From the IMG/VR virus record IMGVR_UViG_3300028833_000071: DNA of 64,000 nt. One strand, 5' to 3'. Numbering within the stretch: position 1 is the first letter of the stretch; each line of letters starts with the position of its first letter. The notes beneath the pieces were generated by a model. The model had not been told where the DNA came from, made no database searches, and saw nothing but the letters and a program-made list of their open reading frames with translations. The translations under genes and the position numbers were made by a program. Below, piece by piece: positions 821 through 63,462 of this stretch. Origin of the DNA: a virus (Duplodnaviria > Caudoviricetes).

Positions 821-838
821 TTTGGCACGGTTTTTGTA
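821..838 (+). promoter_or_regulatory. sigma54-like -24/-12 promoter
   Basis: TTTGGCACGGTTTTTGTA, GG-N10-GT, about 35 nt upstream of ATG 873; one of nine copies. Confidence 0.65.
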
Positions 839-872
839 TGGTATTAGGATGAACTTAAAATAATAAAATAAA

Positions 873-1349
873 ATGTTAGAAAAAAGTCGTAATTATTATC
901 TTAGTGCTTTTGCTTGTGCAATAGTAGGCATTGTTGCCGTTTTAATCGGGTGGTATTTTTGGTCCTTTGTTATCTTTTTCGGCGCTTTTTTATTGGCTTG
1001 TTGTGGTGGCGCAATAAAAGATATTGATAGAGAGCAAAAAGCGTTTAATGAATTTTTTGACATTTCTGTATTCAAACTTGGAATGTCAATAAGTGAAGTT
1101 GCACAATTAAATAAAAGGTATGGCCTTGTTGAAAGAAGTGATGAAAAAAACACGAATTCAGCTGAAATATGCCCATCATGTGGTGCTAATTTAATTAACG
1201 GCAAATGTGATTATTGTGGTTATGTACATACAAACACTACGAATATTACTCGTTTTATTTATGAATCCATTTATGGCTTGAGAATTTTTGAATTTAATGA
1301 ATATGGTAAACTAATTAATTTTAAAAGAATAGTTAAAAACAATAAATAA
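873..1349 (+). CDS. membrane protein with zinc ribbon
   Basis: Two N-terminal hydrophobic helices; CPSCG...CDYCG. Confidence 0.75.
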   Translation: MLEKSRNYYLSAFACAIVGIVAVLIGWYFWSFVIFFGAFLLACCGGAIKDIDREQKAFNEFFDISVFKLGMSISEVAQLNKRYGLVERSDEKNTNSAEICPSCGANLINGKCDYCGYVHTNTTNITRFIYESIYGLRIFEFNEYGKLINFKRIVKNNK

Positions 1350-1350
1350 A

Positions 1351-2574
1351 ATGACAATACAGGAACTTAATGACAATAAATTACTTGGCTACAAATATCT
1401 GCGAGGCAGTTGGAGTCATGGAATAGGTGTTGAAGGTAAATCAGATTATGATTATGGCGGTGTTTTTATTGCACCCATTGAAAATATAATCGGATTAAGG
1501 TCAAATTATATTGAACAGGTTTCAGATGAAAAAAATGATGAAACTTATTATGAATTTGGTAGATGGATTGAATTGTTATTGAAATCAAATCCAACGGCAC
1601 TTGAAAGTCTTTTTATTGATAAGAAGTTTATTATCGGCGATGTGCACCCTGCAATACAGCATATTATTGATAATAAAGAAATGTTTTTGTCTAAAGAATG
1701 CTTTAACCCATTACTAGGGTATTCGATTGCTCAAATACGCAAAGCTACGGGATATAATAAAAAGTGCCATATACCTGAAAATTTCCAAAGAAAAGGTGTA
1801 CTTGATTTTTGTTATACTTTTAAACATCAAGGTTCTCAACCTTTTAAAGATTGGCTTAAAGAAAATGGGCTTGACCAAAAATATTGTGGCCTTGTTAATG
1901 TACCTAACATGAAAGATGTGTATGGTGTCTATTATGATTTTGCCGCTTATTTTCATTTCGAAAATATAGAATGGGAAAAAGATTTTTGGCAAAGACGAAA
2001 TGATAGAACTTCAAAATATGCTAAATATTTCCTCACTATTGAGCAAATGCAAACAATAAAAGAAAGAATAAAGAATAAAGAATTTTTTGGTTATCCCGGT
2101 GTTGTTAACAGCAATAATGATACAGATTCAAATGATGTGAGACTTTGTTCAATACCCAAGGGGGAGACACCTATTTGTTATATGATGTTCAATAAAGACG
2201 GATATAGTGTTCATTGTCGTGAATATAAGGAATGGCGTGAATGGAAAGAAAAACGAAACCAAACTCGTTATTCTGACAATAAAGGTTATAACTTTGACGC
2301 TAAAAATATGTGTGAGACAATAAGATTAATACATACGGGAATTGAATTGGCTCGTGATGGAGAATTTAATGTTGAAAGAACATGGGATAGAAATTTCCTA
2401 TTAAGTGTCAAAAATCATGAGGTTAGTTATGACGAAATAACAAAATATGTAAATACCAAAAAAGAAGAATTTGATAAATTAGTATTGACTTCAACACTCC
2501 CTGATAAGCTTGATTATAACAAAATCAATCAAATTCTTATTGATTCAAGAAAAATGATTTATAATTTAAAATAA
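1351..2574 (+). CDS. Pol-beta superfamily nucleotidyltransferase (RlaP/YcgL-like)
   Basis: RGSWSHG...SDYDYGGVF motif, LLLKSNPTALE, C-terminal FDAKNMCETIRL. Confidence 0.85.
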   Translation: MTIQELNDNKLLGYKYLRGSWSHGIGVEGKSDYDYGGVFIAPIENIIGLRSNYIEQVSDEKNDETYYEFGRWIELLLKSNPTALESLFIDKKFIIGDVHPAIQHIIDNKEMFLSKECFNPLLGYSIAQIRKATGYNKKCHIPENFQRKGVLDFCYTFKHQGSQPFKDWLKENGLDQKYCGLVNVPNMKDVYGVYYDFAAYFHFENIEWEKDFWQRRNDRTSKYAKYFLTIEQMQTIKERIKNKEFFGYPGVVNSNNDTDSNDVRLCSIPKGETPICYMMFNKDGYSVHCREYKEWREWKEKRNQTRYSDNKGYNFDAKNMCETIRLIHTGIELARDGEFNVERTWDRNFLLSVKNHEVSYDEITKYVNTKKEEFDKLVLTSTLPDKLDYNKINQILIDSRKMIYNLK

Positions 2575-2608
2575 TTTTTGTATATTTTTAACAAAGAAAA
2601 TTTAAAAC

Positions 2609-3415
2609 ATGGAAAATATTGAACAAATTATTCCTGAAATTGAAGAGAAAAACACAGAAAATACTCTTAATAATGCCAACATAATCAAGAATTTTTCTTA
2701 TGACCAAACAGAAATTCTTCATAATATTGGATTGTTATATAATAACGGCTCGGACCAATTTGATTGTGATATAACTGCAAGTACGCTTGGTTTTTATAAT
2801 GGCAAACGCAATTGTATGTACAATATCCCTGAGCCTAAAATATTAATGGATGTATGCCCCACAAGAGAAGATATAATTAAAATTGAAAAATGGGGTGATT
2901 TGCCGTTGGAAGATGAGTCAATTAATTCAATTGTAATTGACTTGCCATTTGTTATTTCTCCACAAAATGCCCCATCAGCCGTATCAAATAAAGAGGGAGC
3001 AAGCCTCATATATAAAAGATTTTCAGCATATTACCCAGTTGATAACTTGTATTTATCATACTATCATTGGCTTGCTTCCGCATACAGAGTATTAAAAGAA
3101 AATGGTGTTTGTATCTTTAAATGCCAATCAATGATTTCAGGCGGCATTAGGCATAATGTTGAAGAGTTTAGTTTTATGGCGGCACAAAGACTTGGTTTTA
3201 AAATGGTTGATAAATTTACATTGCTTGCAAAGGCAAGGCTTATTTCCTCAGGTAGATATAAGTCAGGCCAAGTACATTCAAGAAGTTATACATCCATGTT
3301 CTTGGTATTTGTTAAATCTTCAAAACAAAAATCAAAAGATTTTAATTATGAAGAATTGCTTGACAGATGTGAGAGAGAGGAACAAGAACATTATATCAAT
3401 GTGGTGGAAAAATAA
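2609..3415 (+). CDS. putative DNA (adenine/N4-cytosine) methyltransferase
   Basis: CDITAS.LGFY SAM-binding-like motif, DLPLEDESINSIVIDLPF (DPPF-like), YRVLKENGVCIFKCQ. Confidence 0.7.
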   Translation: MENIEQIIPEIEEKNTENTLNNANIIKNFSYDQTEILHNIGLLYNNGSDQFDCDITASTLGFYNGKRNCMYNIPEPKILMDVCPTREDIIKIEKWGDLPLEDESINSIVIDLPFVISPQNAPSAVSNKEGASLIYKRFSAYYPVDNLYLSYYHWLASAYRVLKENGVCIFKCQSMISGGIRHNVEEFSFMAAQRLGFKMVDKFTLLAKARLISSGRYKSGQVHSRSYTSMFLVFVKSSKQKSKDFNYEELLDRCEREEQEHYINVVEK

Positions 3416-3441
3416 AAGGTGGCAAATAAGCCACCTTTTTT
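3414..3441. terminator. bidirectional intrinsic terminator
   Basis: AAAAGGTGGC-aaataa-GCCACCTTTTTT between convergent genes. Confidence 0.75.
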
Positions 3442-3487
3442 AATTAATCAAGTAAGAAGCCCCTCACTTTAGGGAGGGGTAGTCCAC
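3440..3487 (+). mobile_element. IS200/IS605-derived mini-element (PATE-like, ~48 bp)
   Basis: TTAATTAATCAAGTAAGAAGCCCCT matches the left end at 53545-53610 (reverse) and is fused to a right-end hairpin CCCTCACTTTAGGGAGGGGTAGTCCAC; second copy at 7209. Confidence 0.6.
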
Positions 3488-3490
3488 TTG

Positions 3491-6461: not shown

Positions 6462-7115
6462 TTAAAATTTGTATAACAATGATACGCCATAGAAATTGTT
6501 TTTGGTTTTAAATGATTTGGCATATTGTAAATTAAGGCCATATCGTTCCTTAATGAAAAATCCAATATTGGCTGTCGGCATTATATTTTTATAGTCTTTA
6601 AAATCATTGTCAATTAAAATTCCTGCACCAATATATGGGCTAAACATCTTTGTTTTATAATTTGTTATTGTCACGGTCTTTTGTATAGGTGTAAATTGAT
6701 ACGATAATAATGACATTCTATTATATTGTACCGTAGCGTCAACAATACAGGTTCCTGTTGTGTCATTATTAAATAAGGTGTCACTATACATCCGTTTTGT
6801 AGCCCAATCCATCATTATTGCAGTTGTATCCTCTTTTGTTATCTCAATGTATTCGGTTATGATTTTTTCAGGAAATAATTCGCTATATATACTGTCCTTG
6901 ACACATTGTTTTATTATACTGAGGGTATCAGCTGGCTTTTCTATATAATAAGGCAGAGGATAAGGAATGGAGTCTCTTATTGTTTCTCCTTTAATGTATT
7001 TAACTATAACTTTTGGCTCAGTATTAATCGTGCTTCTACCAATAAAAAAGCCTGCAACGCCAAATATTAGCGCAATTATTATACTTATTACGATTATAAA
7101 CTGTTTATTATCCAT
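6462..7115 (-). CDS. N-terminally anchored protein, spanin/lysis-accessory-like
   Basis: N-terminal TM helix, Bacteroidota-type TIRDSIPYP / DT repeats, C-terminal beta-strands ending YKF; late motif at 7133-7141. Confidence 0.6.
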   Translation of the reverse strand: MDNKQFIIVISIIIALIFGVAGFFIGRSTINTEPKVIVKYIKGETIRDSIPYPLPYYIEKPADTLSIIKQCVKDSIYSELFPEKIITEYIEITKEDTTAIMMDWATKRMYSDTLFNNDTTGTCIVDATVQYNRMSLLSYQFTPIQKTVTITNYKTKMFSPYIGAGILIDNDFKDYKNIMPTANIGFFIKERYGLNLQYAKSFKTKNNFYGVSLLYKF

Positions 7116-14240: not shown

Positions 14241-14257
14241 TCAAAAACTATGCCAAA
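14241..14257 (-). promoter_or_regulatory. sigma54-like promoter
   Basis: minus strand TTTGGCATAGTTTTTGA. Confidence 0.6.
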
Positions 14258-15228: not shown

Positions 15229-15246
15229 TACAAAAACCGTGCCAAA
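15229..15246 (-). promoter_or_regulatory. sigma54-like promoter
   Basis: minus strand TTTGGCACGGTTTTTGTA, identical to 821-838. Confidence 0.65.
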
Positions 15247-15510: not shown

Positions 15511-15618
15511 ATTAATTTATTTTTACGATAAACGAGCAAGAAAGCCCACCACTTTAGTCGTGGGATGAATTGCTCTATCCTAAATATACAAATTTTTTAT
15601 TAAATAAATAAAATTTTT

Positions 15619-16261: not shown

Positions 16262-17401
16262 ATGATTGCAGCGAACATAATAAGTGGCATACTACAACGA
16301 TACAAACAAATATGCGCCAAATACCCGCAATCCCCTTCGTTTATACCCAATACCAATGGTGACTCGTTTTATCTTGTAAGAGAAAGAGATGGGAATCGCC
16401 CTGTTCAAGTTCGTATTTCCAATCATGGCACATATCTTAGCAAATGGTGTGATAGGGAAGAATTGGGGAATAGTGTTGAAAGACTTGACCCTGCATTATG
16501 TGACAACATATCAATTGCTTTTATTGACGATGGTAATGATATAACCAAGGATTGCAAGGGAAGACAAGATTGTGAAGACTGCAATATTCAACCTTGCATA
16601 CCACAAACATTCGATGGACAGAATGAGTTGGGAAAACCGTTTAAAGTTATACAATACACCTATAAAAGCAGTCAAATTTCACCAAGGTATATCAACGGGC
16701 TTACCAAAGCTATTGCAGAAGCAAGTGTAAGCGGAAAGTATAACGACCCGTTGGCTAATCTTGTGAAAGCTGCAAAGAAAAAACCACTTTCATCATCAGA
16801 AAATAACCAAGAAATAAAAGAGAATAAGAATAATAAATACAAGAAAATGAATAAGAAACAAGTAATTAGAATTAATGAAAATCAACTCAAACAGATAATA
16901 ATGGAATCTGTGAAAAATGTTATAAAAGAAACCAAGTTCCAAAGAGGATATTATAACATTACGGATGACATGTCTTTTAGAGACATACAAGACAGAATGC
17001 GCTATTTTGGTATAGAAGGTGGAAGAATGGCAGAACCTAATTATCTACCGAAACAATGGATTAAGAAACGTCTACGCCCTAAGGATACAGAATATGTATA
17101 TAATGTTGAAAATCTAATTGATAAGCCAAATATTGTGTCAGTTCTTGACACTGGTACTGATACTTTTTTTGGTGTTGATAAAGACGGTAATATTTATGGT
17201 AATGGGAATCCTGATGAATGTATTGGTAATTTGAACACTGATAAGATATATGGAACAGGATGTTTTGGTGATTATTGTTGGTTGATAGTGTATAAAGATG
17301 AAAAACAAGCTTTGTTTGATTACAGAGGAATTATATGTTACGGTAAAGTGATTCAATTAGATAACGGAACGTATTTCTTTGCAACTAAGCAGCGCACTTA
17401 A
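16262..17401 (+). CDS. putative internal virion protein with internal IRINENQL..ESV peptide
   Basis: Late motif at 16237; VRISNHG N-domain; MNKKQVIRINENQLKQIIMESVKNVIKE at 16847. Confidence 0.75.
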   Translation: MIAANIISGILQRYKQICAKYPQSPSFIPNTNGDSFYLVRERDGNRPVQVRISNHGTYLSKWCDREELGNSVERLDPALCDNISIAFIDDGNDITKDCKGRQDCEDCNIQPCIPQTFDGQNELGKPFKVIQYTYKSSQISPRYINGLTKAIAEASVSGKYNDPLANLVKAAKKKPLSSSENNQEIKENKNNKYKKMNKKQVIRINENQLKQIIMESVKNVIKETKFQRGYYNITDDMSFRDIQDRMRYFGIEGGRMAEPNYLPKQWIKKRLRPKDTEYVYNVENLIDKPNIVSVLDTGTDTFFGVDKDGNIYGNGNPDECIGNLNTDKIYGTGCFGDYCWLIVYKDEKQALFDYRGIICYGKVIQLDNGTYFFATKQRT

Positions 17402-17597
17402 CGGTTTTCACGTCCTCAAACGTCACCACATTAAGGGCTCGTTCCATAAGGACGGCAAATCTTTCACCACCCTTTAATCCACGGTTGTTGTACCTGAAGA
17501 CGGCTTCGTCAACATAACGCTGCATGTACTTGCGTGAAACGTAGTGGTATGTCCCGTACACCATACGCTTGAACTGTCCCCAAAAGCCTTCAATCGT
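17385..17597 (-). pseudogene. IS1595 (ISXO2-like) transposase C-terminal fragment
   Basis: Translates TIEGFWGQFKRMVYGTYHYVSRKYMQRYVDEAVFRYNNR..., the IS1595 C-terminal signature; no start. Confidence 0.85.
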
Positions 17598-26884: not shown

Positions 26885-26902
26885 TTTGGCACGATTATTG
26901 TA
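26885..26902 (+). promoter_or_regulatory. sigma54-like promoter
   Basis: TTTGGCACGATTATTGTA upstream of 26929. Confidence 0.6.
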
Positions 26903-26928: not shown

Positions 26929-27894
26929 ATGACACAAGAAGAAAAGGCAAAACGCTATGATGAAGCTCTTGAAAGAGCCAAGGGTTTCAGGACACCGGAA
27001 CTCAAAGATGCCGCTGAACACATCTTCCCCGAACTCAAAGAGAGCGAGGATGAGAAGATAAGAGAACAAGTAGTTTATGCAATAAACCAATTACATGTTT
27101 GTGAATGTACAAAAAATAAACTTATTGCTTGGCTCGAAAAACAAGACGAGCAGAAACCTACTGATAAAGTTGAACCAAAATTTAATGTTGGTGATTGGAT
27201 TGTTTATGAGGGATTAGGAACATATAAGGTTGTTGAAATACACGAAGGATGGTATAGTGTAATTGATAACAATGATAGACGTTGGTCTGTAAGGTTTTCT
27301 ACAGAAAATTTATGCCATATATGGACAATTCAAGAAGCAAAGAATGGCGATGTGCTTGCTTTTGATAATGATACTATTGTAATATTTAAAGACCTTTATA
27401 ATAGTTCTACATTTCATTCTTATTGCCATATTGAAGATGGATTATTTGATGTTAGTAAAGATGATATGCCTGATTGGTGGGAAGGTGAAGGTTTTCGTCC
27501 AGCCACCAAAGAACAACGTGATACTTTCTTTGTAAAAATGAAAGAGGCAGGTTATGAGTGGGATGATAATAAAAAAGAGTTGAATAAAATTAAGCAAGAA
27601 TCTACTTGGAATGAAAAGATTAAAGGTCTCGATGAACTTGAGACATATATTCTTTCATTAGTGCCTGATAGGTCATTAGATGCTATTAAAGTCGATGCTA
27701 AAAATATTAGACACATAATCAATAAAGAACAGAAGCCTGCTGAATGGAGTGATGACGATGAAAAGTTCTTTAAAACAGCATTATGGCATATAAGTTATTC
27801 TGTCAGCAATGGCAAAAGCACAGATATCCATTGCGATACAACTGACTGGCTCAAATCGCTCAAGCCTATTGGAAGCCGAGTGATGAACAATTAA
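26929..27894 (+). CDS. Bacteroidota-phage modular repeat protein
   Basis: EKAKRYDEALERAK, ESEDEKIR, EPKFNVGDW, WTIQEAK.GDVL, PATKEQRD, WSDDDE modules. Confidence 0.8.
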   Translation: MTQEEKAKRYDEALERAKGFRTPELKDAAEHIFPELKESEDEKIREQVVYAINQLHVCECTKNKLIAWLEKQDEQKPTDKVEPKFNVGDWIVYEGLGTYKVVEIHEGWYSVIDNNDRRWSVRFSTENLCHIWTIQEAKNGDVLAFDNDTIVIFKDLYNSSTFHSYCHIEDGLFDVSKDDMPDWWEGEGFRPATKEQRDTFFVKMKEAGYEWDDNKKELNKIKQESTWNEKIKGLDELETYILSLVPDRSLDAIKVDAKNIRHIINKEQKPAEWSDDDEKFFKTALWHISYSVSNGKSTDIHCDTTDWLKSLKPIGSRVMNN

Positions 27895-27933
27895 TGGGTC
27901 TTGCGTTAGAAGCACCTGAAGGAATGTATGAAA

Positions 27934-27958
27934 TTGTGCCATCAAGTATATAATTACT
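27934..27958 (-). repeat. orphan IS1595-type terminal inverted repeat
   Basis: TTGTGCCATCAAGTATATAATTACT. Confidence 0.7.
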
Positions 27959-27971
27959 AAAAATTATTGTA

Positions 27972-28166
27972 ATGTCTGAAAAAGATTTTTATTTAACAGC
28001 GGCGTTATATGCCATGCAAGGAATGCAGGAAATGGGTGGAAAATTAGGTGAAATTGCTGAATTATTACCAAAACAAGTCGCCGAGCATTCGTTTAAATTT
28101 GCTGATGCGATGCTTGAGGAAGCAAAAAAACATAAATATTTTGTGAAAGAAAAGTCCAATGGATAA
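27972..28166 (+). CDS. hypothetical protein
   Basis: A.YAMQG...A..S...ADAML motif of small phage proteins. Confidence 0.7.
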   Translation: MSEKDFYLTAALYAMQGMQEMGGKLGEIAELLPKQVAEHSFKFADAMLEEAKKHKYFVKEKSNG

Positions 28167-28183
28167 TTTGGCATAATTTTTGA
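28167..28183 (+). promoter_or_regulatory. sigma54-like promoter
   Basis: TTTGGCATAATTTTTGA upstream of 28214. Confidence 0.6.
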
Positions 28184-28213
28184 TATGGTTTAAATGTTTT
28201 AAACTTTAATGTT

Positions 28214-28813
28214 ATGTATAAATTTGTAAAAATAGTTGACAAGAATAGGGAAAATTCAGGTACATGGTATTTTGTTCCCAATTCAATTGAACAGGTTAAA
28301 GAACATTTTGAAAAGATTTTTAGCCAAGAAATTAAGGCTGGAGTACATGATGCTGTTGAAAGAAATCGTTACCATCCAACAACTGCTTGGAGAATTGCTG
28401 TTAACATTATGAATGATTTGTATAGGGAACCATGGGCTTTAGCAGCAGTAAGACTTGAAAATCAGGTTTTTCAAGATAGAATTAAATATTTTGAAAAATA
28501 TCAAACAATGTATCTTGCAAACGGTGTTATCCATTTTTGCCCAAATTGGGATATGCACGAAATTGTTGAAGAAGTCGAACTTGAAGAACTTGAATATCCA
28601 AGAGAAGCGCAATTCCATCTTGAAGAGGTAAGATACATGCAATGGAATATGCCTGGTATAACACAAGGGCAACATTGGTATGCTAAAATTGGAAACCGTG
28701 ATGTCAAAGATGAAGACGGTAATATGAAATGGAACACCAAAGAAGAGGCGGAAAAGGCTGCTGAATGGTTTTGTAATTATTTGAATTTTAAAACTTATTT
28801 TTATGGGCATTAA
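28214..28813 (+). CDS. hypothetical protein
   Basis: 199-aa ORF. Confidence 0.75.
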   Translation: MYKFVKIVDKNRENSGTWYFVPNSIEQVKEHFEKIFSQEIKAGVHDAVERNRYHPTTAWRIAVNIMNDLYREPWALAAVRLENQVFQDRIKYFEKYQTMYLANGVIHFCPNWDMHEIVEEVELEELEYPREAQFHLEEVRYMQWNMPGITQGQHWYAKIGNRDVKDEDGNMKWNTKEEAEKAAEWFCNYLNFKTYFYGH

Positions 28814-29186
28814 AGTATATAACAAAAAAGAAGAGGATTATTCAATGTACCCCAATGACTATTATATAGGTAGAGGGAGTATTTTGGGTAATCCGTTTAC
28901 ACATTTGCCTTTGGAAAAGACAATGGCCATGTATCATACAAGAAATCGTGAAGAGGCAATTGAACGATACAGTGGGTATTTTGATATTATGTATGAAAAT
29001 GATGCTGAGTTTAAATCTATTGTAGATGAGATATATGAAAAGTATAAACGAGGTGAAGATGTGTATTTAGCGTGCTTCTGTCATCCTTATAGTTGCCATG
29101 GTGATGTTATTGCACAAAAATTACAAAAAAGATTATTAAAAGAAAAAATAAAAGAGGCAAAAATCAGTCGGAACAAAGAAAATTAA
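28803..29186 (+). CDS. DUF4326 family protein
   Basis: YIGRGSILGNPF, REEAI..Y, LACFCHP..CHGDVI. Confidence 0.88.
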   Translation: MGIKVYNKKEEDYSMYPNDYYIGRGSILGNPFTHLPLEKTMAMYHTRNREEAIERYSGYFDIMYENDAEFKSIVDEIYEKYKRGEDVYLACFCHPYSCHGDVIAQKLQKRLLKEKIKEAKISRNKEN

Positions 29187-29190
29187 AAAC

Positions 29191-29616
29191 ATGAAAATAT
29201 ATCTTGCATCATCTTTAAACCTTGATAAAAGAGACAAAATGTTTGAGGCCCTTGGATATCTTAGAGGCATAGGCCATGATGTATATGCACCTGTTGAACA
29301 CAAGATTGCCAATGCATGGGATTATCCAAATGATGAATGGGGCCTTATGGTTTTTGAGGATGATATTAAAGCCATAAAAGAATCAGATATTGTTGTGGTA
29401 CTTTCATACGGCAGAGATTCAACAGCAGGAGCAAATTGGGAAAGTGGATATGCTTTCGGGATTGGCAAGAAGATAATTTTGGTTGAAATGACTGAAAACA
29501 TAATGTCTTTAATGGTTGCAAATGGAAGATATGCCACTGTTAAAGGACTCGATGGTTTAAAAGAATACGACTGGGATAAAATGCCTCCAACAAGAACAAA
29601 TACTTTACAGACATGA
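29191..29616 (+). CDS. nucleoside 2-deoxyribosyltransferase family protein
   Basis: IYLAS, D..AI..SDIVV, GANWESGYA..GK. Confidence 0.85.
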   Translation: MKIYLASSLNLDKRDKMFEALGYLRGIGHDVYAPVEHKIANAWDYPNDEWGLMVFEDDIKAIKESDIVVVLSYGRDSTAGANWESGYAFGIGKKIILVEMTENIMSLMVANGRYATVKGLDGLKEYDWDKMPPTRTNTLQT

Positions 29617-31484
29617 AATGGGAAAAATATTATAATTTACCTGAAATACAAAAGATTAGAGAAAAGATAATTGAAACATATACCAATAAATTAGTATTTG
29701 AAGAGGGGCCTCATAAATATTATTTAGATGGGGTTGAATATATATCGGTATCGGAAGTAACGCACAAATATAAGCCCATAGATAGTGAGCAAATGGCTGA
29801 AAATTGTGTAAATAAATGGAAAAGAGACCAAGACCCTTCATATAAGTATTATGGTATGTCCAAAGAAGAAATACTTGCACAGTGGAAAGTTAAATCAGAC
29901 CATGCTTGTGAATTCGGTACTAATGTCCATGCATTCGGCGAGAGTATGTTTTATTATATGACTGGTCATCCTGAAGAAATATTACCTGACTGTAAAACAC
30001 AGTTTGATGAAAATGGGCCTCATCCATCTAATCCACAGGAAGAAGCAATTGTAAAATTTTGGGATGATTTACCTGAGAATTTTGTCCCTGTGCTTGCTGA
30101 AACAAAGGTATTTAATCGGAATGGAACACAATATGCAGGTACTTTTGATATATTGTTTTATTATGTTGAGTATCCAGAATCGCCTAAAAACGGTTTGGTT
30201 ATATTTGATTATAAAGGGCTTGATATTAATACCCCAATATTAACAAAATATGGATGGAAAACAATGGAGAATATTAATATTGGTGATGTGGTTTATGATG
30301 GTGATGGTAATGAAACAAAGGTGATACATACTTCTGATATTCATCATAAAAAATGTTATAAATTATATTTTAACAATGGAGAAACTGTTATTTCTGATTA
30401 TGAACATAATTGGGAAATTTTTTTCTCGAATTGTAGAAAGACAACGAAAACAATTATGACAACAGAAGAAATTCTTGAATTTATGCAAAAAAATCCAAAT
30501 AGAAAAAATACAATTAAAATTCCCAAAATAAAACAATTCAATGGTATTGATGGAAATGATAATAATATAAATATAGACCCGTATGTTTTGGGCGTTTGGT
30601 TGGGTGATGGGCATTCATCCTGTGGCATGATTACAAATATGTATGATGAAATATTTAAAGAAATTGAAAAACGAGGTTATAAAATTGGGCCTGATGTTTC
30701 TCAGGGTGGTGCGGGCAAAGCAAAAAGTAGAACAATTTTTGGGCTTGCTACACAATTAAAACAATATAATTTACTAAATAACAAACACATACCATTTGAA
30801 TATTTAACATCATCTAAAAAAACCAAATTAGAGGTTTTAAGAGGATTAATGGATACAGATGGTTATTACAATAAAAAAAGAAAACGATTTGTTTTAGCAA
30901 CAACAAGAGAATATCAAATGAATTTTACTCTTGAACTTCTTTCTTCTTTAGGCATAAAGTGCAGTGTTATAAAATGTAAAAAATATTGTAATGATAAGAT
31001 TATTAATGGTTTTGATGTCACATTTTCATCAAAAGAATATCCATTTTTAATTAGAAAATTTGAAATAGGACATTCTAAAAAAAATCATGATACTTATATA
31101 AATATAACAAAAATAGAAGAGGTAGAAACAATACCGACAAAATGTATTCAAGTAGATAGTGATTTACATACATTTTTATTTGGTAAACACATGATGATTA
31201 CACATAACACAAATGAAGACCTATATAAAAATTATCGTGGTCAAACTTTATTGTGGCCATTTCAAGATATGTTAGACCAGAATGTCTCTTATTATACTTT
31301 ACAACTTGGGTGTTATCAAGTACCATTAGAAAATCTTGGCTATAATGTTATAGGGAGACGACTTATTTGGGTCAGACCTGATGGAACATATGAAAAAGTA
31401 AAAATAGAATCAATAGCAAATAGAATAAGGCAAGCATTAAATATCCCTTCTTCAAAGAAAATAATAGAAGAAGGACTTTTATAA
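29613..31484 (+). CDS. PD-(D/E)XK (Cas4-like) nuclease interrupted by an intein
   Basis: GTNVH, E, AGTFDIL, DYK/TN, Y.LQL..Y; intein at residues 202-532. Confidence 0.85.
   Translation: MKWEKYYNLPEIQKIREKIIETYTNKLVFEEGPHKYYLDGVEYISVSEVTHKYKPIDSEQMAENCVNKWKRDQDPSYKYYGMSKEEILAQWKVKSDHACEFGTNVHAFGESMFYYMTGHPEEILPDCKTQFDENGPHPSNPQEEAIVKFWDDLPENFVPVLAETKVFNRNGTQYAGTFDILFYYVEYPESPKNGLVIFDYKGLDINTPILTKYGWKTMENINIGDVVYDGDGNETKVIHTSDIHHKKCYKLYFNNGETVISDYEHNWEIFFSNCRKTTKTIMTTEEILEFMQKNPNRKNTIKIPKIKQFNGIDGNDNNINIDPYVLGVWLGDGHSSCGMITNMYDEIFKEIEKRGYKIGPDVSQGGAGKAKSRTIFGLATQLKQYNLLNNKHIPFEYLTSSKKTKLEVLRGLMDTDGYYNKKRKRFVLATTREYQMNFTLELLSSLGIKCSVIKCKKYCNDKIINGFDVTFSSKEYPFLIRKFEIGHSKKNHDTYINITKIEEVETIPTKCIQVDSDLHTFLFGKHMMITHNTNEDLYKNYRGQTLLWPFQDMLDQNVSYYTLQLGCYQVPLENLGYNVIGRRLIWVRPDGTYEKVKIESIANRIRQALNIPSSKKIIEEGLL
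30216..31208 (+). other. class 3 intein with LAGLIDADG homing endonuclease
   Basis: DYK|GLDINTPILT ... EHNW ... YVLGVWLGDG ... LRGLMDTDG ... TKCIQVDS ... ITHN|T. Confidence 0.88.
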
Positions 31485-48633: not shown

Positions 48634-48651
48634 TTTGGCATAATTTTTGTA
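48634..48651 (+). promoter_or_regulatory. sigma54-like promoter
   Basis: TTTGGCATAATTTTTGTA upstream of 48686. Confidence 0.6.
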
Positions 48652-48685: not shown

Positions 48686-50002
48686 ATGGAAATTAAGACT
48701 TATTACGACATTTTAACTTATTTAAAAGAAGTTATCAAAGGTACTGAATATGAGGGCCATGTATTTTCTGTTGGAGGCTGTGAGCGAGATAAGCATCTTG
48801 GTTCAGATACCATCAAGGATATTGATATTGTTGTTGACCTTATGGATGGTGGAATTCGTTTCGCAAAGTGGCTTGAATCTAACGGACACACTAAAGGTTC
48901 CGTAGTTGTGTACGAGAACTTTGGCACAGCCATGTTCAAACTCAAGGAATTTCCTGACGAGGAAATTGAAACCGTACACACAAGAAAGGAAACCTACAGG
49001 GACAAGAACAGCCGTAACCCTGAGACTGCATTCGGAACAATCAATGACGATTGTTTCCGTAGGGACTTTACCATCAACTCATTATACCACAACATTTCAA
49101 AGGATGAAGACCTTGACTTGACTGGTAGAGGCTTTGATGACCTTGAAAAAGGACTTATCTACACTTGCTCTTCTCCTGATTTAATCTTCACCGAGGACCC
49201 ATTAAGGCAATTAAGAGCCGCAAGGTTTTCTGCAAAACTTGGTTTCCTTATTGATAATGATGTTTTTGAATCAATGAAAAGGAACATTGAACGCCTTAAA
49301 ATCATTTCTCAGGAACGAATCACCGATGAATTCAATAAGATTCTGATGTCTGGCCATCCATATATTGGATTGAGCTATCTTAATGACATTGGCTTTTTCG
49401 ATACTATTACCCCGTACCTGTTCACTTATGAAAACGGAGAAAGAAATGAGGCCGCAAAGGAAGGTGCATTTGAATCTGTATTGGAGATTGTTGAAAAATA
49501 CAACTACGACCTTGAAACCGTTCTTGGTGCATTTGTCCAGAATTGGTATTGTGAAAGTAAGCAGAGAAATAAGTTCCTAAAGGAATTCAAGTACTCAAAC
49601 GATACTATTAACAAAGTAAACTTCTATGCAATGAAAGCATTTCCTCTTGAACTTGCTTGTAAGTGGAAACTTGGAAGCAAAATCCGTGAGATTGCTTATG
49701 AATGCAACACGATTGAAGATTTCAGCCACATTGTTGCAATTGCAAAATCATTCCCAAGACTAAAAGACGGAATCTGTGTATTTAATTTTCTCAAAACAAT
49801 TGATATTGATGAAATGATTGGGTATAAACTCCCCGTCAATGGTGACGATATTATGGAAATTCGTGGCATAGGCCCATGTAAAGAAGTAAAAACAATAATT
49901 GACCATTTGCTCGAATGCGCATTCATGAATCCAAAAATCACAAGAGACGAATGCGTTGAAATAATAAAAAATGTTAAACTAAAAAATATTGTAGTAAAAT
50001 GA
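48686..50002 (+). CDS. cca: tRNA nucleotidyltransferase (CCA-adding/poly(A) polymerase family)
   Basis: VGGCERD..LG...KDIDI, FGT, D..RRDFTINS, EDPLR.LRA.RF, ISQERI..E. Confidence 0.92.
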   Translation: MEIKTYYDILTYLKEVIKGTEYEGHVFSVGGCERDKHLGSDTIKDIDIVVDLMDGGIRFAKWLESNGHTKGSVVVYENFGTAMFKLKEFPDEEIETVHTRKETYRDKNSRNPETAFGTINDDCFRRDFTINSLYHNISKDEDLDLTGRGFDDLEKGLIYTCSSPDLIFTEDPLRQLRAARFSAKLGFLIDNDVFESMKRNIERLKIISQERITDEFNKILMSGHPYIGLSYLNDIGFFDTITPYLFTYENGERNEAAKEGAFESVLEIVEKYNYDLETVLGAFVQNWYCESKQRNKFLKEFKYSNDTINKVNFYAMKAFPLELACKWKLGSKIREIAYECNTIEDFSHIVAIAKSFPRLKDGICVFNFLKTIDIDEMIGYKLPVNGDDIMEIRGIGPCKEVKTIIDHLLECAFMNPKITRDECVEIIKNVKLKNIVVK

Positions 50003-50574
50003 GCGGAAAAGATGTTTTGACCCTTTTATTGTGTTCATTCGGGTATGATAGAAACATAAAAATCGAAGTGACAAATGTTGGCTATAGCGAGCCAATGTAT
50101 GATGTATATGCTGAAAATAAAGATGGTGATGTATATGAGCAAATTGATAGTGAGGGGCTTATGTTTCATATATACGAAATCATTTCATATATGACAGAAT
50201 ATAATAAGTACATAAACGGTCCGTCAGAAAAAACTAAAAATTTTGATTTAAACAATTTGCATTTTGAAAGCAAATGGTGGGGTGTTGCGCCAAAGCACAT
50301 ACTTAATGCGGAGACAAGAGAAAAAATAATAAAGGAAAATGACGAAAGGGATGAAAGAATAAAGCAAGAAATCGAAAGAATGAAACCATTTGATAAATGG
50401 GTCGAAGAGCATAATCCATGCAATTCTTGCACAGAAAAAGTTCCTTTGACATCACTTCCTTCAGGATGGCATCACGATTGTGAAATATGTTATAATGGAA
50501 GATGCCCAAAAATGAGACATTTTTTGGATGTGGAGTATAAAGAAGAACTTAAAAAATATAGAGATGGAAAATAA
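49999..50574 (+). CDS. hypothetical protein with C-terminal Cys/His cluster
   Basis: CNSC...CEIC...C. Confidence 0.7.
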   Translation: MSGKDVLTLLLCSFGYDRNIKIEVTNVGYSEPMYDVYAENKDGDVYEQIDSEGLMFHIYEIISYMTEYNKYINGPSEKTKNFDLNNLHFESKWWGVAPKHILNAETREKIIKENDERDERIKQEIERMKPFDKWVEEHNPCNSCTEKVPLTSLPSGWHHDCEICYNGRCPKMRHFLDVEYKEELKKYRDGK

Positions 50575-51388
50575 TTTTAAGTTCACGGAAGAGTATATCC
50601 AAAAGAAACTTGACGGATTCTTTGCTGATAGCACAAAGAAATATGTCATCGAAAATCTTTATGTTTTTAGTTGGGAATCCGACAAGCTGATTGAAACAAG
50701 GTCTGGACTTATATATGAATTTGAGATTAAGATAAGCAGGTCAGATTTCAAGAATGACTTCAAGAAAAAGGACAGACATATCATACTTGAGGGCGGACAA
50801 ACACATTTGCCAATATTTGAAACTTTAAATCCGATATACCAGAAAATGTACGAAAAGAATTATTTGGTCAGTAATTTCAAAAAGCCTAATTACTTTTATT
50901 ATGCGGTTCCTGAGGGCCTTATCACAGTAGATGAAGTACCTGAATACGCTGGCTTGATATATATTATTCCTGATGACGGAGAATACCACTTTACATGGTT
51001 TCGGATTGCCAAGCAAGCGCCTAAATTGCACAATGTAAAATATTCAGACGATGACCTTAATCTTGGAGAAAAGTTCTATTACAATATGCTGTCATGGAAA
51101 GATAAGTTCCGTCAGGAAAGGGAAAAACAACTTCTTGCCGAAGGTGCTGACCAAAAAATGACATATGCTGAATTGCTTGACAAATACAACAAATCAAAAA
51201 GAGAAATAAATGGCTACAAGGCCCTTATTAATCAATTAGACGAGCAAAAGAAACTCCATTTCGAGAATGAATTGAATGATAGGGAAATCATAAAAGCCTA
51301 TAGAAAAAAAGTTAATGATTTTGACAAAAGTTTTAATCCCTTTGATTTTGAAAATAAAATAATTGAAGAATATGAAAATTTGGCATAA
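50564..51388 (+). CDS. MmcB-like PD-(D/E)XK nuclease-fold protein
   Basis: WESD, EFEIKISRSDFKND..K, PNYFYYAVP, PEYAGL. Confidence 0.75.
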   Translation: MENNFKFTEEYIQKKLDGFFADSTKKYVIENLYVFSWESDKLIETRSGLIYEFEIKISRSDFKNDFKKKDRHIILEGGQTHLPIFETLNPIYQKMYEKNYLVSNFKKPNYFYYAVPEGLITVDEVPEYAGLIYIIPDDGEYHFTWFRIAKQAPKLHNVKYSDDDLNLGEKFYYNMLSWKDKFRQEREKQLLAEGADQKMTYAELLDKYNKSKREINGYKALINQLDEQKKLHFENELNDREIIKAYRKKVNDFDKSFNPFDFENKIIEEYENLA

Positions 51389-51396
51389 TTTTTGTA
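51379..51396 (+). promoter_or_regulatory. sigma54-like promoter
   Basis: TTTGGCATAATTTTTGTA upstream of 51435. Confidence 0.6.
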
Positions 51397-51434: not shown

Positions 51435-52259
51435 ATGGATTATCATTATACAGATATTTTTGAAATTGATGGGCAACTGATTGTTGCTGAAACGATTGAA
51501 GAGGCAATAAAATTGGCTTATGCTTTTAATGTATTGAATGATGGTTATGAGGTTACAAATATCAGACGTATAACGGCTGATTATCCACATACATATTATG
51601 CAATTGAAGAAGAAAAGGAAAATTGTCCGGGTTTAGGAATAGGAATCTCATCTCATGAATATGTTGACCTTGGATTGCCAAGTGGTACACTGTGGGCTAC
51701 TTGCAATATAGGTGCTGAAAACCCCGAAGATGCTGGCTTGTACTTCCAATGGGGTGACACTCAAGGATATACCGCTGCACAAGTAGGTACTGACAAGGTA
51801 TTTGATTGTGTACACTACAAATACAGCAACGCTGATGGCTCTGAAATGACCAAATACAATTCAACTGATGGCAAGACAGTCCTTGATAACGAGGATGACG
51901 CAGCCTATGTTAATTGGGGTAGTGATTGGAAGATGCCTACATTGGCTGATATAGAGGAATTGACTGCCAATACCACTCACGAAGTCGTTACTGTCAACGG
52001 TGTATCTGGTATGAGTTTCACTAGTAAAAACGGTAATGGTAATAGTATTTTTGTTCCTTTTGCTGGCTGTGCTGGTGAGAATGATGTTCTTTATGTTGAA
52101 AAGATAAGAGTATGCTATTATTGGTCAAGTTCACTCAATAGTGAGTATAATAGTTTTGCTCATAAACTTTATGTTAAAAATAATGGGAACGTCTATATCC
52201 GCAGCGAGAATCGTTGTGTCGGCTTCCCTGTGCGTCCTGTGCGTGTTCAGAACCAATAA
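51435..52259 (+). CDS. DUF1566/Fib_succ_major-like lectin-fold protein; second likely DGR target
   Basis: HEYVDLGLPSGTLWATCNIGA...YWSSS...GFPVRPVRVQNQ; last 32 nt identical to gene at 10708. Confidence 0.8.
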   Translation: MDYHYTDIFEIDGQLIVAETIEEAIKLAYAFNVLNDGYEVTNIRRITADYPHTYYAIEEEKENCPGLGIGISSHEYVDLGLPSGTLWATCNIGAENPEDAGLYFQWGDTQGYTAAQVGTDKVFDCVHYKYSNADGSEMTKYNSTDGKTVLDNEDDAAYVNWGSDWKMPTLADIEELTANTTHEVVTVNGVSGMSFTSKNGNGNSIFVPFAGCAGENDVLYVEKIRVCYYWSSSLNSEYNSFAHKLYVKNNGNVYIRSENRCVGFPVRPVRVQNQ

Positions 52260-59613: not shown

Positions 59614-59631
59614 TTTGGCACAGTTTTTGTA
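59614..59631 (+). promoter_or_regulatory. sigma54-like promoter separated from gene 61077 by the IS insertion
   Basis: TTTGGCACAGTTTTTGTA immediately before the IS right end. Confidence 0.6.
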
Positions 59632-59634
59632 TAA

Positions 59635-61040
59635 CTGACATACTCCCACGATTGAAATCGTGGGGTTCTTAATTTCTTAAGAACCTGTATTTATCAACAA
59701 GTTATTCTTGTTGACCACGCTTGACACATCAAGTGGCGCTGTCAGCAGCGCAAGGTGATTTTGTTCATATCGCTTCAATATGTTAATCGCAGCGTTTAAA
59801 TCACGGTCTATTACTATGGAATCGGAAATCTGTACCGTCCTGTCGGACAGTCCAACCCTTTCCTCAAACAATTTGCCGGTCAGACAGTTTTGTTGTGTTG
59901 TCCATTTCTCGTTAATGGAAATAAGTTCAGTATTGCTGTTCTGACATTTGTATGACAAATATTCCATAAATGTGGCTATTGATGATTCACTGAAGTTGCG
60001 AGAATTCTTCGTTAACTTGTTGCTTCTCTTCTCCATCAGTGTCTTCACACTCAAGTCACCAACTACAATTGTCTTGTAGTTCATATTCACCAATTTCTTG
60101 CTCTGAATATGCAGAGTCTGTTTTATCTGTGCATTTTTCCTTTTATACAGTTTGTTCTTCACCTTCTTTAACTTGCAGTGACGGCTGCTGCCCTTTGTGC
60201 ATTTATCCATTTTGGACTGAACTGACGATATCTGCTTGCGGAAATACTTGTTTATCCTTCTTGCTTTGTTCGGTATCGTGACAACATTGCCCAAATTATC
60301 GACACAGTTGCACAGGTTTTTAATGCCAAGGTCAATCGCAAGTACCTTGTTTTCAGTTGTCAACACCTCTTCTTCGTCAACATGGTTTGCTACACCTAAG
60401 TCAAGCAGATATTTTCCGTTGACCATCTTCAGTTTGACTTCCTTGACAGTTAAAGACTTGTAGTCAATATTCGGGATACCTTTATAAGTTACGGCAATAC
60501 CATTTACTTTCAATGTGGTGTTATTTATGAATTTCCATCCCGATTGGTTGTACACAACAGTGTGAAATTTGTCAACATCGTTGATTTTATGGGGCGGTTT
60601 CGCTGTATGGTCTTTTTTAACCAAAGTGAAAAAAGACTTGTATGAGGAATAGATTTCCTTGGCAACCCTTTGGCTTGCCTTGGAGTTAAGGCAAGTTAAA
60701 AAGGGATTTTCTTTTCTGAGGAAGGTTATATCTCTGTCAAGGTCAAATTCGGTTTTTATCTTTCCTGTTGTTTCATAGGTTTGGTTTTCGATGTCGATAA
60801 GCAGGTTATACAAAAGGTTCCTTGCAAGGGACAGGTTTTTCAGTTCCTGCTCCTGCTGACCATTCGGGAAAAGTCTTAATGTATATGTCCTGTACTGTAT
60901 CATCACTTATAAATAGTATAATTATTAAAAAAAGTCAAGAAATTAATAAAAAATTTTATTTATTTAATAAAAAAATTGTATATTTAGGATAGAGCAATTC
61001 ATCCCACGACTAAAGTGGTGGGCTTTCTTGCTCGTTTATC
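59635..61040 (-). mobile_element. IS200/IS605-family element (tnpB only, IS1341-like)
   Basis: Subterminal hairpins CCCACGATTGAAATCGTGGG and CCCACGACTAAAGTGGTGGG; both ends recur at 15527 and 17610; TTAC precedes the left end in both copies. Confidence 0.85.
59677..60903 (-). CDS. tnpB: RNA-guided endonuclease TnpB
   Basis: RTYTLRLFP, LAIDLG (RuvC-I), IVVGDL, NEKWTTQ, DRDLNAAINI (RuvC-III). Confidence 0.92.
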   Translation of the reverse strand: MIQYRTYTLRLFPNGQQEQELKNLSLARNLLYNLLIDIENQTYETTGKIKTEFDLDRDITFLRKENPFLTCLNSKASQRVAKEIYSSYKSFFTLVKKDHTAKPPHKINDVDKFHTVVYNQSGWKFINNTTLKVNGIAVTYKGIPNIDYKSLTVKEVKLKMVNGKYLLDLGVANHVDEEEVLTTENKVLAIDLGIKNLCNCVDNLGNVVTIPNKARRINKYFRKQISSVQSKMDKCTKGSSRHCKLKKVKNKLYKRKNAQIKQTLHIQSKKLVNMNYKTIVVGDLSVKTLMEKRSNKLTKNSRNFSESSIATFMEYLSYKCQNSNTELISINEKWTTQQNCLTGKLFEERVGLSDRTVQISDSIVIDRDLNAAINILKRYEQNHLALLTAPLDVSSVVNKNNLLINTGS

Positions 61041-61076
61041 GTAAAAGAAATAGAAATTAATTAAAATTTAAAAAAC

Positions 61077-62585
61077 ATGAATAAAAGATTCGTATTAAGC
61101 AAAGAAAGTAACCCAAACTACCTTTGCAGTATTTGTAGACTTGGTGAAACATTCCCAATTGAGGGCGCTGATAAACTTGTTAAGACCGTGGTAAACGGTT
61201 ATGATATTGTTATTGGCAAGGATTACAAGGAGGGGGATATTGTAGTTTATTTCCCCGTTGAAACCGCTATTAGCGAGATGTATCTTTCAGCAAACAATTT
61301 GTTTGAGCGTTCAGAATTTGAGCGTAATGCAAATGCTGACTCTGTAAAGGAATACCTTATTGAATTGGAGAATGCTGATAATGAGAATGACACACAAAAG
61401 GCTGAAGAGTTGTCAGCTAAGATTAAATCAATGTGTGGATTTTTCAATAAACATGGACGTGTTCGTATTTTGAAACTTCGTGGACAATATTCCATGGGAT
61501 TTATTGCAGGTGTTGATTCACTTGTTAACTATGACCCGACATTGAAAGATACTGATTGGGAGAGTCTTGTGGGAACACAATTTGACTATATTGATGACAA
61601 GGAGTTCTGCCATAAGTATATACCAATGATTAATGGAAGACGAGGACAAAATCAAAACCATGATTCAAAGGGCAAATCAATATGGAAGTGGAGAATGAGA
61701 AAATTGAAGAAATTCAATAGACTTGTTGATGGACAATTTGAATTTCATTATTCTACTAAAATGCTTCCAGAGCATATTAATGAGTTCAAGCCTGATGATA
61801 TTGTTGCCATAAGCACTAAAATTCATGGAACGAGTGTGATATTGTCTAACATCCTTGTTAATAGGAAACTTTCAATTTGGGAGAAAATCAAAAAGTTCTT
61901 TGGTTTTAAAGTACCTATGACTGAATATGGTAACATATATTCTTCAAGAAGTGTTATCAAGAATCAATACTTGGATAAAGATAGACGTGGTTTCTATGGC
62001 GTTGATATATGGGGTTGTGTAAACAGAGATTTTTCACCTTATCTATCTGAAGGTATGACCGTATATGGCGAAATTGCAGGTTATCTTGAGAATTCAACTA
62101 AAATGATTCAAAAGCAGCACGATTATGGCTGCAAACCTGGCCATTGGAAATTTATGCCATATCGAATTACCGAGACTGATGTTGATGGTAATAAGAAAGA
62201 GTGGGAACTTGCAGAAGTTGATGCATGGACACATAAACTTGTCGAAGAGCACCCTGAACTTGCCGATAAGACCCTTTTCTTGGATATTATCTATCAAGGC
62301 CGTTTCGGTGATATGTACCCTGATGTTCCAGAAGATGAAAATTGGAACAAGAATATTCTTGCAAGAATGAAGGGTGATAGGGAACTTATCCTTATGGAGG
62401 AAGATGAACCTATGTGCAAAAACAAAGTTCCTCGTGAGGGTGTTGTTGTCAGACTTGTAAATGACCAATTTGCAAGGGCATGGAAATTAAAGAGTGCAAG
62501 ACATTATTCACTAGAAGCTAAACAGCACGATAATGGTGAGGTTGATATGGAAGAGGCTGATTCCTCACAAGAAGAGAATGCTTAA
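61077..62585 (+). CDS. RNA ligase (DRB0094/Rnl2-like) with N-terminal OB-fold
   Basis: PIEGAD.L, KLRGQYSMG, motif I STKIHGTS, SSRSV, YGEI.G, EGVVVR, WKLKS. Confidence 0.85.
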   Translation: MNKRFVLSKESNPNYLCSICRLGETFPIEGADKLVKTVVNGYDIVIGKDYKEGDIVVYFPVETAISEMYLSANNLFERSEFERNANADSVKEYLIELENADNENDTQKAEELSAKIKSMCGFFNKHGRVRILKLRGQYSMGFIAGVDSLVNYDPTLKDTDWESLVGTQFDYIDDKEFCHKYIPMINGRRGQNQNHDSKGKSIWKWRMRKLKKFNRLVDGQFEFHYSTKMLPEHINEFKPDDIVAISTKIHGTSVILSNILVNRKLSIWEKIKKFFGFKVPMTEYGNIYSSRSVIKNQYLDKDRRGFYGVDIWGCVNRDFSPYLSEGMTVYGEIAGYLENSTKMIQKQHDYGCKPGHWKFMPYRITETDVDGNKKEWELAEVDAWTHKLVEEHPELADKTLFLDIIYQGRFGDMYPDVPEDENWNKNILARMKGDRELILMEEDEPMCKNKVPREGVVVRLVNDQFARAWKLKSARHYSLEAKQHDNGEVDMEEADSSQEENA

Positions 62586-62594
62586 AAGGCATAA

Positions 62595-62625
62595 AAAAAG
62601 GCTCTGAGTAACTCAGGGCCTTTTC
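62595..62625. terminator. bidirectional intrinsic terminator
   Basis: AAAAAGGCTCTGAG-taa-CTCAGGGCCTTTT. Confidence 0.75.
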
Positions 62626-62630
62626 TGTTT

Positions 62631-63386
62631 TCATAATGGTTTATATTCAAAATTTCGAACCTTAAATGGTGTATAAAGTTCATTTGGCACTTTAGATGGG
62701 TCAGCCACATAAATATCAATTATAGCATCCATTAAATATCCGTGTTCAGGCGTTCTAAGATTTTCCGTTAACATATGGGCATATTTTTTACCCACAGTAC
62801 GATTTACTTTTCCATTGGCCTTGAATGTAATCTTATCAGGCTCCCAAATGCACTCATATTTAATCCAATTTTCAGTGGGGTCTAGTTTTTGTTTACAATA
62901 AGGAATATTTTTTGATTTAATATTCCTATGTATTAAATCCTCATCATTATAATGGACATTTGATGTTGTCAGCCATGATGGATTTATCCATGGGAATTCT
63001 TTTGTGAATATTTCCCAATAGTCTTTATTCTTTGACCATGCTTCACATATATCAATTTCAGGTGGCCAATTGCCATCGCCGCTTAACCAAAATGAAGCGC
63101 CTACATTTAATCCTTTAGGCATTAATGCTTCTACAGAGAAAGTGCCATAATCAAATGAGGTTAATGACCTTATAAGACCTCTTTCTAATGAAGGATGATA
63201 AATTTTTCCATCCCAATATTTAACATCTTTGGGATTTGGCCTATAATACATTGAAATTTCATTGTTTTCGTTTATTTTAACGACATCAGGTGTGTCACTA
63301 AGCCAATAATAAGGCTCGTCAGGATGTATTATCCTACCACCTTCCATTTTGCAGTCCCAATCATAACCGCACCAATTTATTACCAT
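62631..63386 (-). CDS. glycoside hydrolase family 16-like protein
   Basis: FDYGTF, SFWL, WPPEIDICE catalytic ExDxxE, Y..IW.PD.I.F; late motif at 63403. Confidence 0.85.
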   Translation of the reverse strand: MVINWCGYDWDCKMEGGRIIHPDEPYYWLSDTPDVVKINENNEISMYYRPNPKDVKYWDGKIYHPSLERGLIRSLTSFDYGTFSVEALMPKGLNVGASFWLSGDGNWPPEIDICEAWSKNKDYWEIFTKEFPWINPSWLTTSNVHYNDEDLIHRNIKSKNIPYCKQKLDPTENWIKYECIWEPDKITFKANGKVNRTVGKKYAHMLTENLRTPEHGYLMDAIIDIYVADPSKVPNELYTPFKVRNFEYKPL

Positions 63387-63444
63387 AACATTTAATTTTA
63401 TAATAAATAGTTTTTAAAAAAACTTTTTTGTATATTTGAATTAG

Positions 63445-63462
63445 TTTGGCATAGAATTTGAT
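63445..63462 (+). promoter_or_regulatory. sigma54-like promoter
   Basis: TTTGGCATAGAATTTGAT upstream of 63489. Confidence 0.5.

Follow-up and report, generated by a model that had tools for sequence, protein, structure and literature searches.

Which polymerase reads a short motif that recurs at a fixed distance ahead of phage genes, and which genes does it switch on? The question is raised by a 64,000-nucleotide (nt) stretch of the IMG/VR virus record IMGVR_UViG_3300028833_000071 (Caudoviricetes), referred to here as the window, which covers bases 50118-114117 of a 147,462-bp contig with 31.7% G+C. An account drawn from the letters of the window alone (the sequence-only reading) proposed that nine copies of the motif are promoters of the sigma-54 (RpoN) type. 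Their sequence and geometry support this proposal in the form that such promoters take in Bacteroidota, as judged from mapped promoters, a survey of groES upstream regions and a matrix trained on host sites. The nine sites in the window and the 19 in the whole contig are most likely one class of -24/-12 promoters read by the host polymerase with host RpoN, a reading to which the sequence comparisons below give a probability of roughly 0.68.

A scan of the window with the pattern TTTGGCAYNNNWTTTGW, allowing at most one mismatch, returns exactly nine matches, whereas dinucleotide-preserving shuffles give an expectation of 1.15 and a maximum of four (n = 100). Eight of the positions first proposed (821, 26885, 28167, 48634, 51379, 59614 and 63445 on the plus strand and 14241 on the minus strand) are exact, and the remaining one, 15229 on the minus strand, moves by 1 nt to 15230. 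The copy at 26885 reads TATTG, as had been noticed, and is the sole mismatched one among the nine. Each site is intergenic and oriented toward the next gene. The first same-strand ATG after TTG lies 37, 22, 51, 29, 32, 37, 41 and 29 nt from its G at the sites 821, 14241, 15230, 26885, 28167, 48634, 51379 and 63445, respectively, a range of 22-51 nt that agrees with the 20-50 nt or so initially estimated for these eight.

The phage is large, uncultured and T4-like, with a portal protein, a T4-type large terminase and a major head protein encoded on the contig. Its nearest cultured phage by terminase, Flavobacterium phage immuto, is 25% identical, and no near-identical DNA was found among annotated phages. 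Relatives in IMG/VR measure 148-355 kb and share 65-80% terminase identity; they include G001 (208 kb), G002 (222 kb), G003 (355 kb, complete, with terminal repeats), G004 (303 kb, 82% complete) and G005 (195 kb).

Across the whole contig TGGCAY-N5-TTG occurs 24 times, and 19 of these copies form a homogeneous family, (T)TTGGCAY-RR-T(T/A)TTTG-(T/A)-AT. All 19 are intergenic and face the gene downstream, in a contig that is 91% coding, and 12 of them lie in plus-strand gene blocks downstream of the window, mostly at 124-140 kb. TGGCAY and TTG are invariant at the sites, and the spacing between them is that of -24 and -12 boxes: a TTG follows TGGCA at an offset of 6 in 28 cases, compared with 4-10 cases at any other offset, and two relatives give 45 against 1-10 and 40 against 1-5. 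The genome-wide scan thus bears out a fixed GG-to-G spacing; variable spacing, which the sequence-only reading had named as grounds for abandoning the idea, did not appear. In this genome, G004 and G001, the gap between the G and the ATG measures 36-37 nt at the median, and its values peak sharply at 35-38 nt. Set against a reversed-pattern control, the copies of TGGCAY-N5-TTG number 56 versus 2 in G004, 37 versus 3 in G001, 18 versus 3 in G002, 10 versus 3 in G005 and 5 versus 5 in G003. In G004 and G001, blocks of small single genes carry a copy every 200-700 bp, and in such dense blocks the sigma-54-type sites are the only recurring motif before genes. Three copies in G001 stand 19-30 nt before the genes for tRNA-Asn, tRNA-Pro and tRNA-Arg. 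Because sites directly precede tRNA genes, the element acts on transcription and not on translation.

The host probably belongs to the order Bacteroidales, as several genomic signals indicate. A Shine-Dalgarno-like 4-mer is found in 3.4% of phage genes, versus a random rate of 7%, and Bacteroidota do not rely on Shine-Dalgarno sequences, as stated in a 5'-end mapping study (PMC9723704). Contigs with proteins 80% (ClpB) and 83% (CCA enzyme) identical to those of the phage are binned in an uncultured Bacteroidales metagenome-assembled genome (MAG), G006, which has its own rpoN and groES, the latter carrying the box. This bin, with at least two phage-like contigs, contains a related huge phage, which is a hint at the host and also a contamination of the MAG. 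A search for the host with the ClpB protein returned only a phage-like contig in a Bacteroidales MAG and a distant Christensenellaceae ClpB, and a query with the TnpB protein found no relative in the genome-contig collection.

In Bacteroidota, promoters of the same form head chaperone genes. The 5'-end map of Flavobacterium psychrophilum assigns a motif, SM4, to sigma-54, and places it before groES, dnaK, grpE-dnaJ, htpG, lon, clpB and gliding/envelope genes; examples with mapped starts are groES TTGGCATAATTTCTGA, remF TTGGCACGATTTTAGT and clpB TTGGAATAACAATTGA, and two further SM4 RNAs have TTTTGT and TTTGT at the -12 box (PMC9723704). Five mapped F. psychrophilum promoters were compared, and the groES one matches the phage site at 28167 except at a single base. 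An enrichment of chaperone genes with sigma-54 promoters in Bacteroidota is also reported by a 2025 phylum-wide survey (PMC12316311).

The probable host order itself was sampled through 41 genomes of the order that holds the Bacteroidales MAG linked to the phage, 29 of which supplied groES upstream regions. Of the 29, 28 have a TGGCAY-N6-(T/C/G)G box that begins ~72-92 nt before groES; the base that follows it is A in 15 genomes, C in 7 and T in 5. When a 22-column matrix trained on these host groES sites only is run over the phage contig, all of the top 15 hits belong to the phage family (16.8-23.5 bits; training median 19.7). Hits of at least 16 bits number 17, versus 0.44 in shuffles, and hits of at least 18 bits number 13, versus 0.13. 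The phage sites score 14.6-23.5 bits, with one outlier at 12.6, and have the core TTGGCAY-N6-TG as it stands before groES.

The proposed reader had been a sigma-54 of either host or phage. The phage half of this proposal is not supported, since no Sigma54_DBD or CBD domain was found in the contig or in five relatives; the sole match, at 13.5 bits and full of stop codons, was rejected as a phage-encoded sigma-54. Host RpoN stands as the likeliest reader, and rpoN is present in all 41 sampled genomes of the probable host order. Phages of another kind point the same way. The exact 16-mer TTTGGCACGGTTTTTG is found in more than 100 other IMG/VR contigs, many of which are linear phages of ~11.7 kb (about 11-12 kb) with 44% G+C, many from sample 3300045988. 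These small phages have inverted terminal repeats of ~330 bp that contain 2-6 tandem copies of a canonical TGGCACGGTTTTTGCT, 48 bp apart and facing inward. One of them was annotated and is phi29-like, with a DNA polymerase, a packaging ATPase, an upper collar connector and a major head protein, and with no sigma factor or RNA polymerase among its identified open reading frames (ORFs). As unrelated phi29-like phages share the sites without a reader of their own among the identified ORFs, a host-encoded factor is the simplest reader.

These small phages also bear on a different explanation, in which the motif is a promoter recognized by a specificity factor that the phage itself encodes, either a sigma-70-family protein or a divergent RNA polymerase, and merely resembles a sigma-54 site. 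Candidates of the first kind are at hand: G001, G002, G004 and G005 encode sigma-70-family proteins of 235-239 amino acids (aa) with regions 2 and 4, and G004 encodes a second, of 295 aa (16665-17552, minus strand), while the contig studied, 41% complete, has no sigma-70-family gene. A sigma factor that binds through regions 2 and 4 requires a spacer of ~17 bp, however, and misfits boxes that lie one helical turn apart. The 295-aa gene of G004, moreover, has two tandem sigma-54-type sites directly upstream, and looks like a product of the class rather than its reader. As to a polymerase, PF00940, PF00562 and PF00623 gave no RNA polymerase match in six phage records, although the single-subunit (PF00940) search is uninformative, its control having given no match either; divergent phage polymerases can escape Pfam. 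The failure to find an activator or activator site for sigma-54, described below, lends this explanation some weight. Against it, the motif equals the host groES promoters, a host-only matrix ranks the phage sites first, and the same sites occur in the unrelated 11.7-kb phages, all of which makes a phage-encoded reader unlikely.

Enrichment of 8-mers upstream of genes resolves three promoter families, and the sigma-54-type class, TTTGGCAY-N3-WTTTGW, is the one found before 16-19 genes. It precedes small unknown genes, DUF932, a zinc-ribbon ORF with a nucleotidyltransferase, the CCA-adding enzyme and the RNA ligase, the last three being RNA-repair genes, and another site precedes a DUF2828/DUF7788 protein (RNA-binding according to PHROGs). 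In relatives the class also covers tRNA genes and a phage sigma-70-family gene. The second family, ACTATTTAT, looks like the late promoter class and serves head and tail genes; its 24 genes include those for the portal, the major head protein and most other minus-strand virion proteins. Of its 27 copies, 24 stand upstream of a gene, at distances of 14-49 nt, and in the window it precedes the genes at 7115 (minus), 10708, 16262, 17657, 38969 (minus), 40560 (minus) and 48553 (minus). The sigma-54-type sites do not overlap this late motif. The third family, here class 2, reads TTGTATAT(T) or (T)TTTTGTATAT(T) and precedes 25 genes, among them replication-type operons, with about 25 nt from G to ATG; copies in the window include those at 2578, 31497, 35296, 54400, 57028 and 59082. 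The separate gene class first proposed, composed of DUF932, the CCA enzyme, the RNA ligase, the nucleotidyltransferase operon and small ORFs, has a motif distinct from the two other upstream motifs.

Two further observations concern class 2. Its copies at 15591 (minus), 53545 and 60976 are followed by short, mutually similar sequences that contain hairpins. A class-2-like box, TTTTTGTATGTT, precedes the phage gene for an 864-aa ClpB-like disaggregase, which lies outside the window (contig 27767-30361, plus strand), has Clp_N, two AAA and ClpB_D2-small domains and is kept in relatives.

Several observations weigh against a reading by host sigma-54. One is that about half of the sites (9 of 19) run into the class-2 core TTGTAT, and some of these may be hybrid or dual promoters. 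The same overlap would be expected of a composite promoter for the host primary sigma factor, in which TTTTTG serves as the -7 box TTTG or as class-2 TTGTATAT and TTTGGCAY is the box of a phage activator, as at the MotA-dependent middle promoters of T4. The -7 box of the Bacteroidota primary sigma factor does end in TTTG (PMC9723704). Yet the sites do not conserve the TA of TAnnTTTG, and TTGTAT is not kept after the sites in relatives. The distance of ~36 nt from G to ATG, versus ~25 nt for class 2, further suggests different start offsets, and the full TGGCAY-N5-TTG match to host sigma-54-type sites would become a coincidence. Such a composite promoter is improbable.

Other points against host sigma-54 concern the -12 box and the sampling. 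The canonical C at -12 is absent in this genome, where T or A takes its place, and the same is true of the host groES promoters; this misfit disappears once the comparison is made with promoters of Bacteroidota. G002 has the canonical C after TTG at 63% of its sites. The motif is lacking in G003, a complete and more distant genome, and in the cultured Flavobacterium phage immuto. The contig is just ~41% complete (CheckV), and the host order is inferred only.

The activator is a further difficulty, as sigma-54 transcription is the bacterial route that is unable to start without an ATP-driven activator. No gene for a bacterial enhancer-binding protein was found, and no ORF has a GAFTGA motif. 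Matches to PF00158 were rejected as phage activators, being the ClpB-like disaggregase (AAA_2, ClpB_D2-small) and a generic AAA ATPase (381 aa, phrog_2376). In the host sample, TGTCA or TGACA words lie within 60 nt upstream of the groES box in 15 of 28 genomes, and are candidates for the sequence bound by the chaperone-regulon regulator; they are often arranged as inverted repeats, for example TGTCA-N7-TGACA. Upstream of phage sites the same words occur in 3 of 24, 3 of 43, 1 of 34 and 2 of 11 cases, at or below a background of 12-15%, and 6-mer enrichment over 110 nt finds no shared upstream word in this genome. In relatives, TATACG is present upstream of 9 of 72 sites as part of a palindrome, TACGCA-N0-3-TGCGTA, of which this genome has none. 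At five sigma-54-type sites in relatives the palindrome lies 3-6 nt before the box, a position from which it could act as the operator for a regulator of these promoters. Six copies fall within 40 kb of G004 (15.7-31.5 kb area) and three within 43 kb of G001 (195-207 kb area).

That neither an activator nor an activator site was found would suit sites that bind host sigma-54 polymerase mainly as roadblocks or as decoys that divert it from the host stress regulon, and that are not productive promoters. Closed complexes of sigma-54 are stable without an activator, and relatives carry many high-scoring sites, up to 56 per genome. A decoy, however, needs neither orientation nor spacing, whereas every good site in this genome is oriented toward its gene and keeps a closely constrained distance to the start codon, or 19-30 nt to a tRNA gene, and this role is very improbable. 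Each of the three alternatives must treat the exact match to host sigma-54-type sites as a coincidence or ignore their fixed orientation and distance.

If the sites are read by host sigma-54, the host RNA polymerase carrying this factor would recognize the Bacteroidota-form -24/-12 boxes of the phage and start transcription ~12-14 nt past the G of TTG, so that the leader would measure ~23 nt. Candidate agents for opening the closed complex would be a host activator that binds no nearby site or a phage factor so far unrecognised. Some sites in relatives are followed by a downstream box, TATATTGTAGTG or a variant of it, and 13 of the 14 strict copies lie behind a site. This box was rejected as a separate promoter because it almost never occurs without a sigma-54-type box; its position suggests that it may represent the melted and initially transcribed region of the sigma-54-type promoter.

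The individual sites of the window head a varied set of genes. The site at 821..837 (plus strand, TTTGGCACGGTTTTTGT; 18.7 bits on the host-trained matrix) is followed by a 158-aa zinc-ribbon-like ORF (873-1349) and then by the nucleotidyltransferase (1351-2574). On the minus strand, the site at 14241..14257 (TTTGGCATAGTTTTTGA, 18.6 bits) precedes small ORFs at 14220-14032 (62 aa) and 14032-13715 (105 aa), and that at 15230..15246 (also TTTGGCACGGTTTTTGT, 18.4 bits) precedes the DUF932 gene at 15180-14308 (DUF932 match of 87 bits). The remaining six are on the plus strand. Behind 26885..26901 (TTTGGCACGATTATTGT) lies a 321-aa gene without known function (26929-27894), and the GATTATTG form seen at this site is the most frequent variant in G004 and G001. 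The site at 28167..28183 (TTTGGCATAATTTTTGA) heads a replication-type operon at 28214-31484 that encodes a 199-aa ORF, DUF4326, a nucleoside 2-deoxyribosyltransferase and a 623-aa primase/helicase-like protein.

Two sites share the sequence TTTGGCATAATTTTTGT. That at 48634..48650 precedes the gene of the CCA-adding/poly(A) polymerase family (48686-50002), and its 3' portion overlaps the class-2 motif; in G004 and the MAG-binned relative, the ortholog of this CCA-enzyme gene lies within an operon and has no site directly upstream. The other, at 51379..51395, heads a 274-aa gene (51435-52259). The site at 63445..63461 (TTTGGCATAGAATTTGA, 19.9 bits) is followed by a 56-aa ORF (63489-63659) and a 567-aa gene starting at 63671. 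A weak and doubtful tenth site, TGGCATCACGATTG at 50467..50480 (plus strand), lies within coding sequence, 48 nt before an ATG at 50528; it scores less than 10 bits on the host-trained matrix, and its 14-mer also occurs in G004 at 300561-300574.

The site at 59614..59630 (TTTGGCACAGTTTTTGT) is parted from the RNA ligase gene (61077-62585, phrog_968) by an IS605-family TnpB element, in accord with the insertion sequence that had been suspected there. Its TnpB ORF (59677-60903, minus strand, 408 aa) has OrfB_IS605, Cas12f1-like TNB and HTH_OrfB_IS605 domains. The element is inserted a few bases past the TTG of the promoter, and the 3' end of TnpB adjoins the promoter. In G001, the segment L105 (165001-185000) contains 34 tRNA genes and a tmRNA-like gene as detected by ARAGORN, and one of its tRNAs has the anticodon CTA, which would read TAG.

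Gene content alone suggests that the sigma-54-type class is early, since dense arrays of small single genes occur in it together with a sigma factor gene and functions in RNA repair. This early class would, in one relative or more, switch on a phage sigma factor, which could serve the later classes. A bolder possibility, and a doubtful one, is that host sigma-54 drives the first expression programme in a clade of huge T4-like phages of Bacteroidales, through dozens of enhancer-less promoters of the heat-shock type. If so, the phages would rely either on a captured activator of the chaperone regulon that acts from solution or on a new, phage-encoded, non-AAA+ way of opening closed complexes, and the sigma-70-family factor switched on from these promoters would drive the later classes.

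A class of phage sigma-54 promoters derived from chaperone-type promoters of the host and conserved across a clade of very large rumen or gut phages would be a new form of takeover of host expression, and full-text literature searches turned up no earlier account of such a class in a phage. If the reading holds, the start-up of the phage would be tied to a stress circuit of the host, and the question becomes what opens the closed complex in the absence of an enhancer or activator gene. For work in Bacteroidota, the sites would offer sigma-54 promoters that are both compact and strong.

With T4-like phages this phage shares the terminase, the portal and the major head protein, as well as the use of three upstream motifs, with a short AT-rich late motif before virion genes. 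Early promoters of T4 are of the sigma-70 type; here, in contrast, the class before small and accessory genes is of the sigma-54 type, and relatives encode sigma-70-family genes of their own. Enhancer-dependent sigma-54 promoters such as glnAp2, pspA and nifH reportedly follow the Barrios consensus, TGGCACG-N4-TTGCW. The phage sites resemble these canonical promoters in a GG and a G ten bases apart, a TGGCAC(G) box and a T-rich run before TTG, and differ from them in having T or A in place of the -12 C and in that no upstream activator site, integration host factor (IHF)-type site or activator gene was found. The SM4 promoters of Bacteroidota are closer, with the same core and spacing: TTGGCAY, five bases, (T)TG and then T, A or C. 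Unlike the chaperone promoters of Bacteroidota, the phage sites number at least 19 per contig and up to 56 in a relative, stand ~36 nt from the ATG, compared with ~72-92 nt from the start of the host TGGCA box to groES, and are without the TGTCA/TGACA element common upstream of host groES.

A single phage precedent was found, the sigma-54-like promoter P015 of Pseudomonas phage YuA (Ceyssens 2008, cited in PMC10914365), which fits the earlier remark that such promoters are rarely described for phages. Like the sites described here, P015 is a phage promoter attributed to host sigma-54. In YuA it is one such promoter among sigma-70-type and phage-specific ones, whereas here a whole class is conserved across a phage clade.

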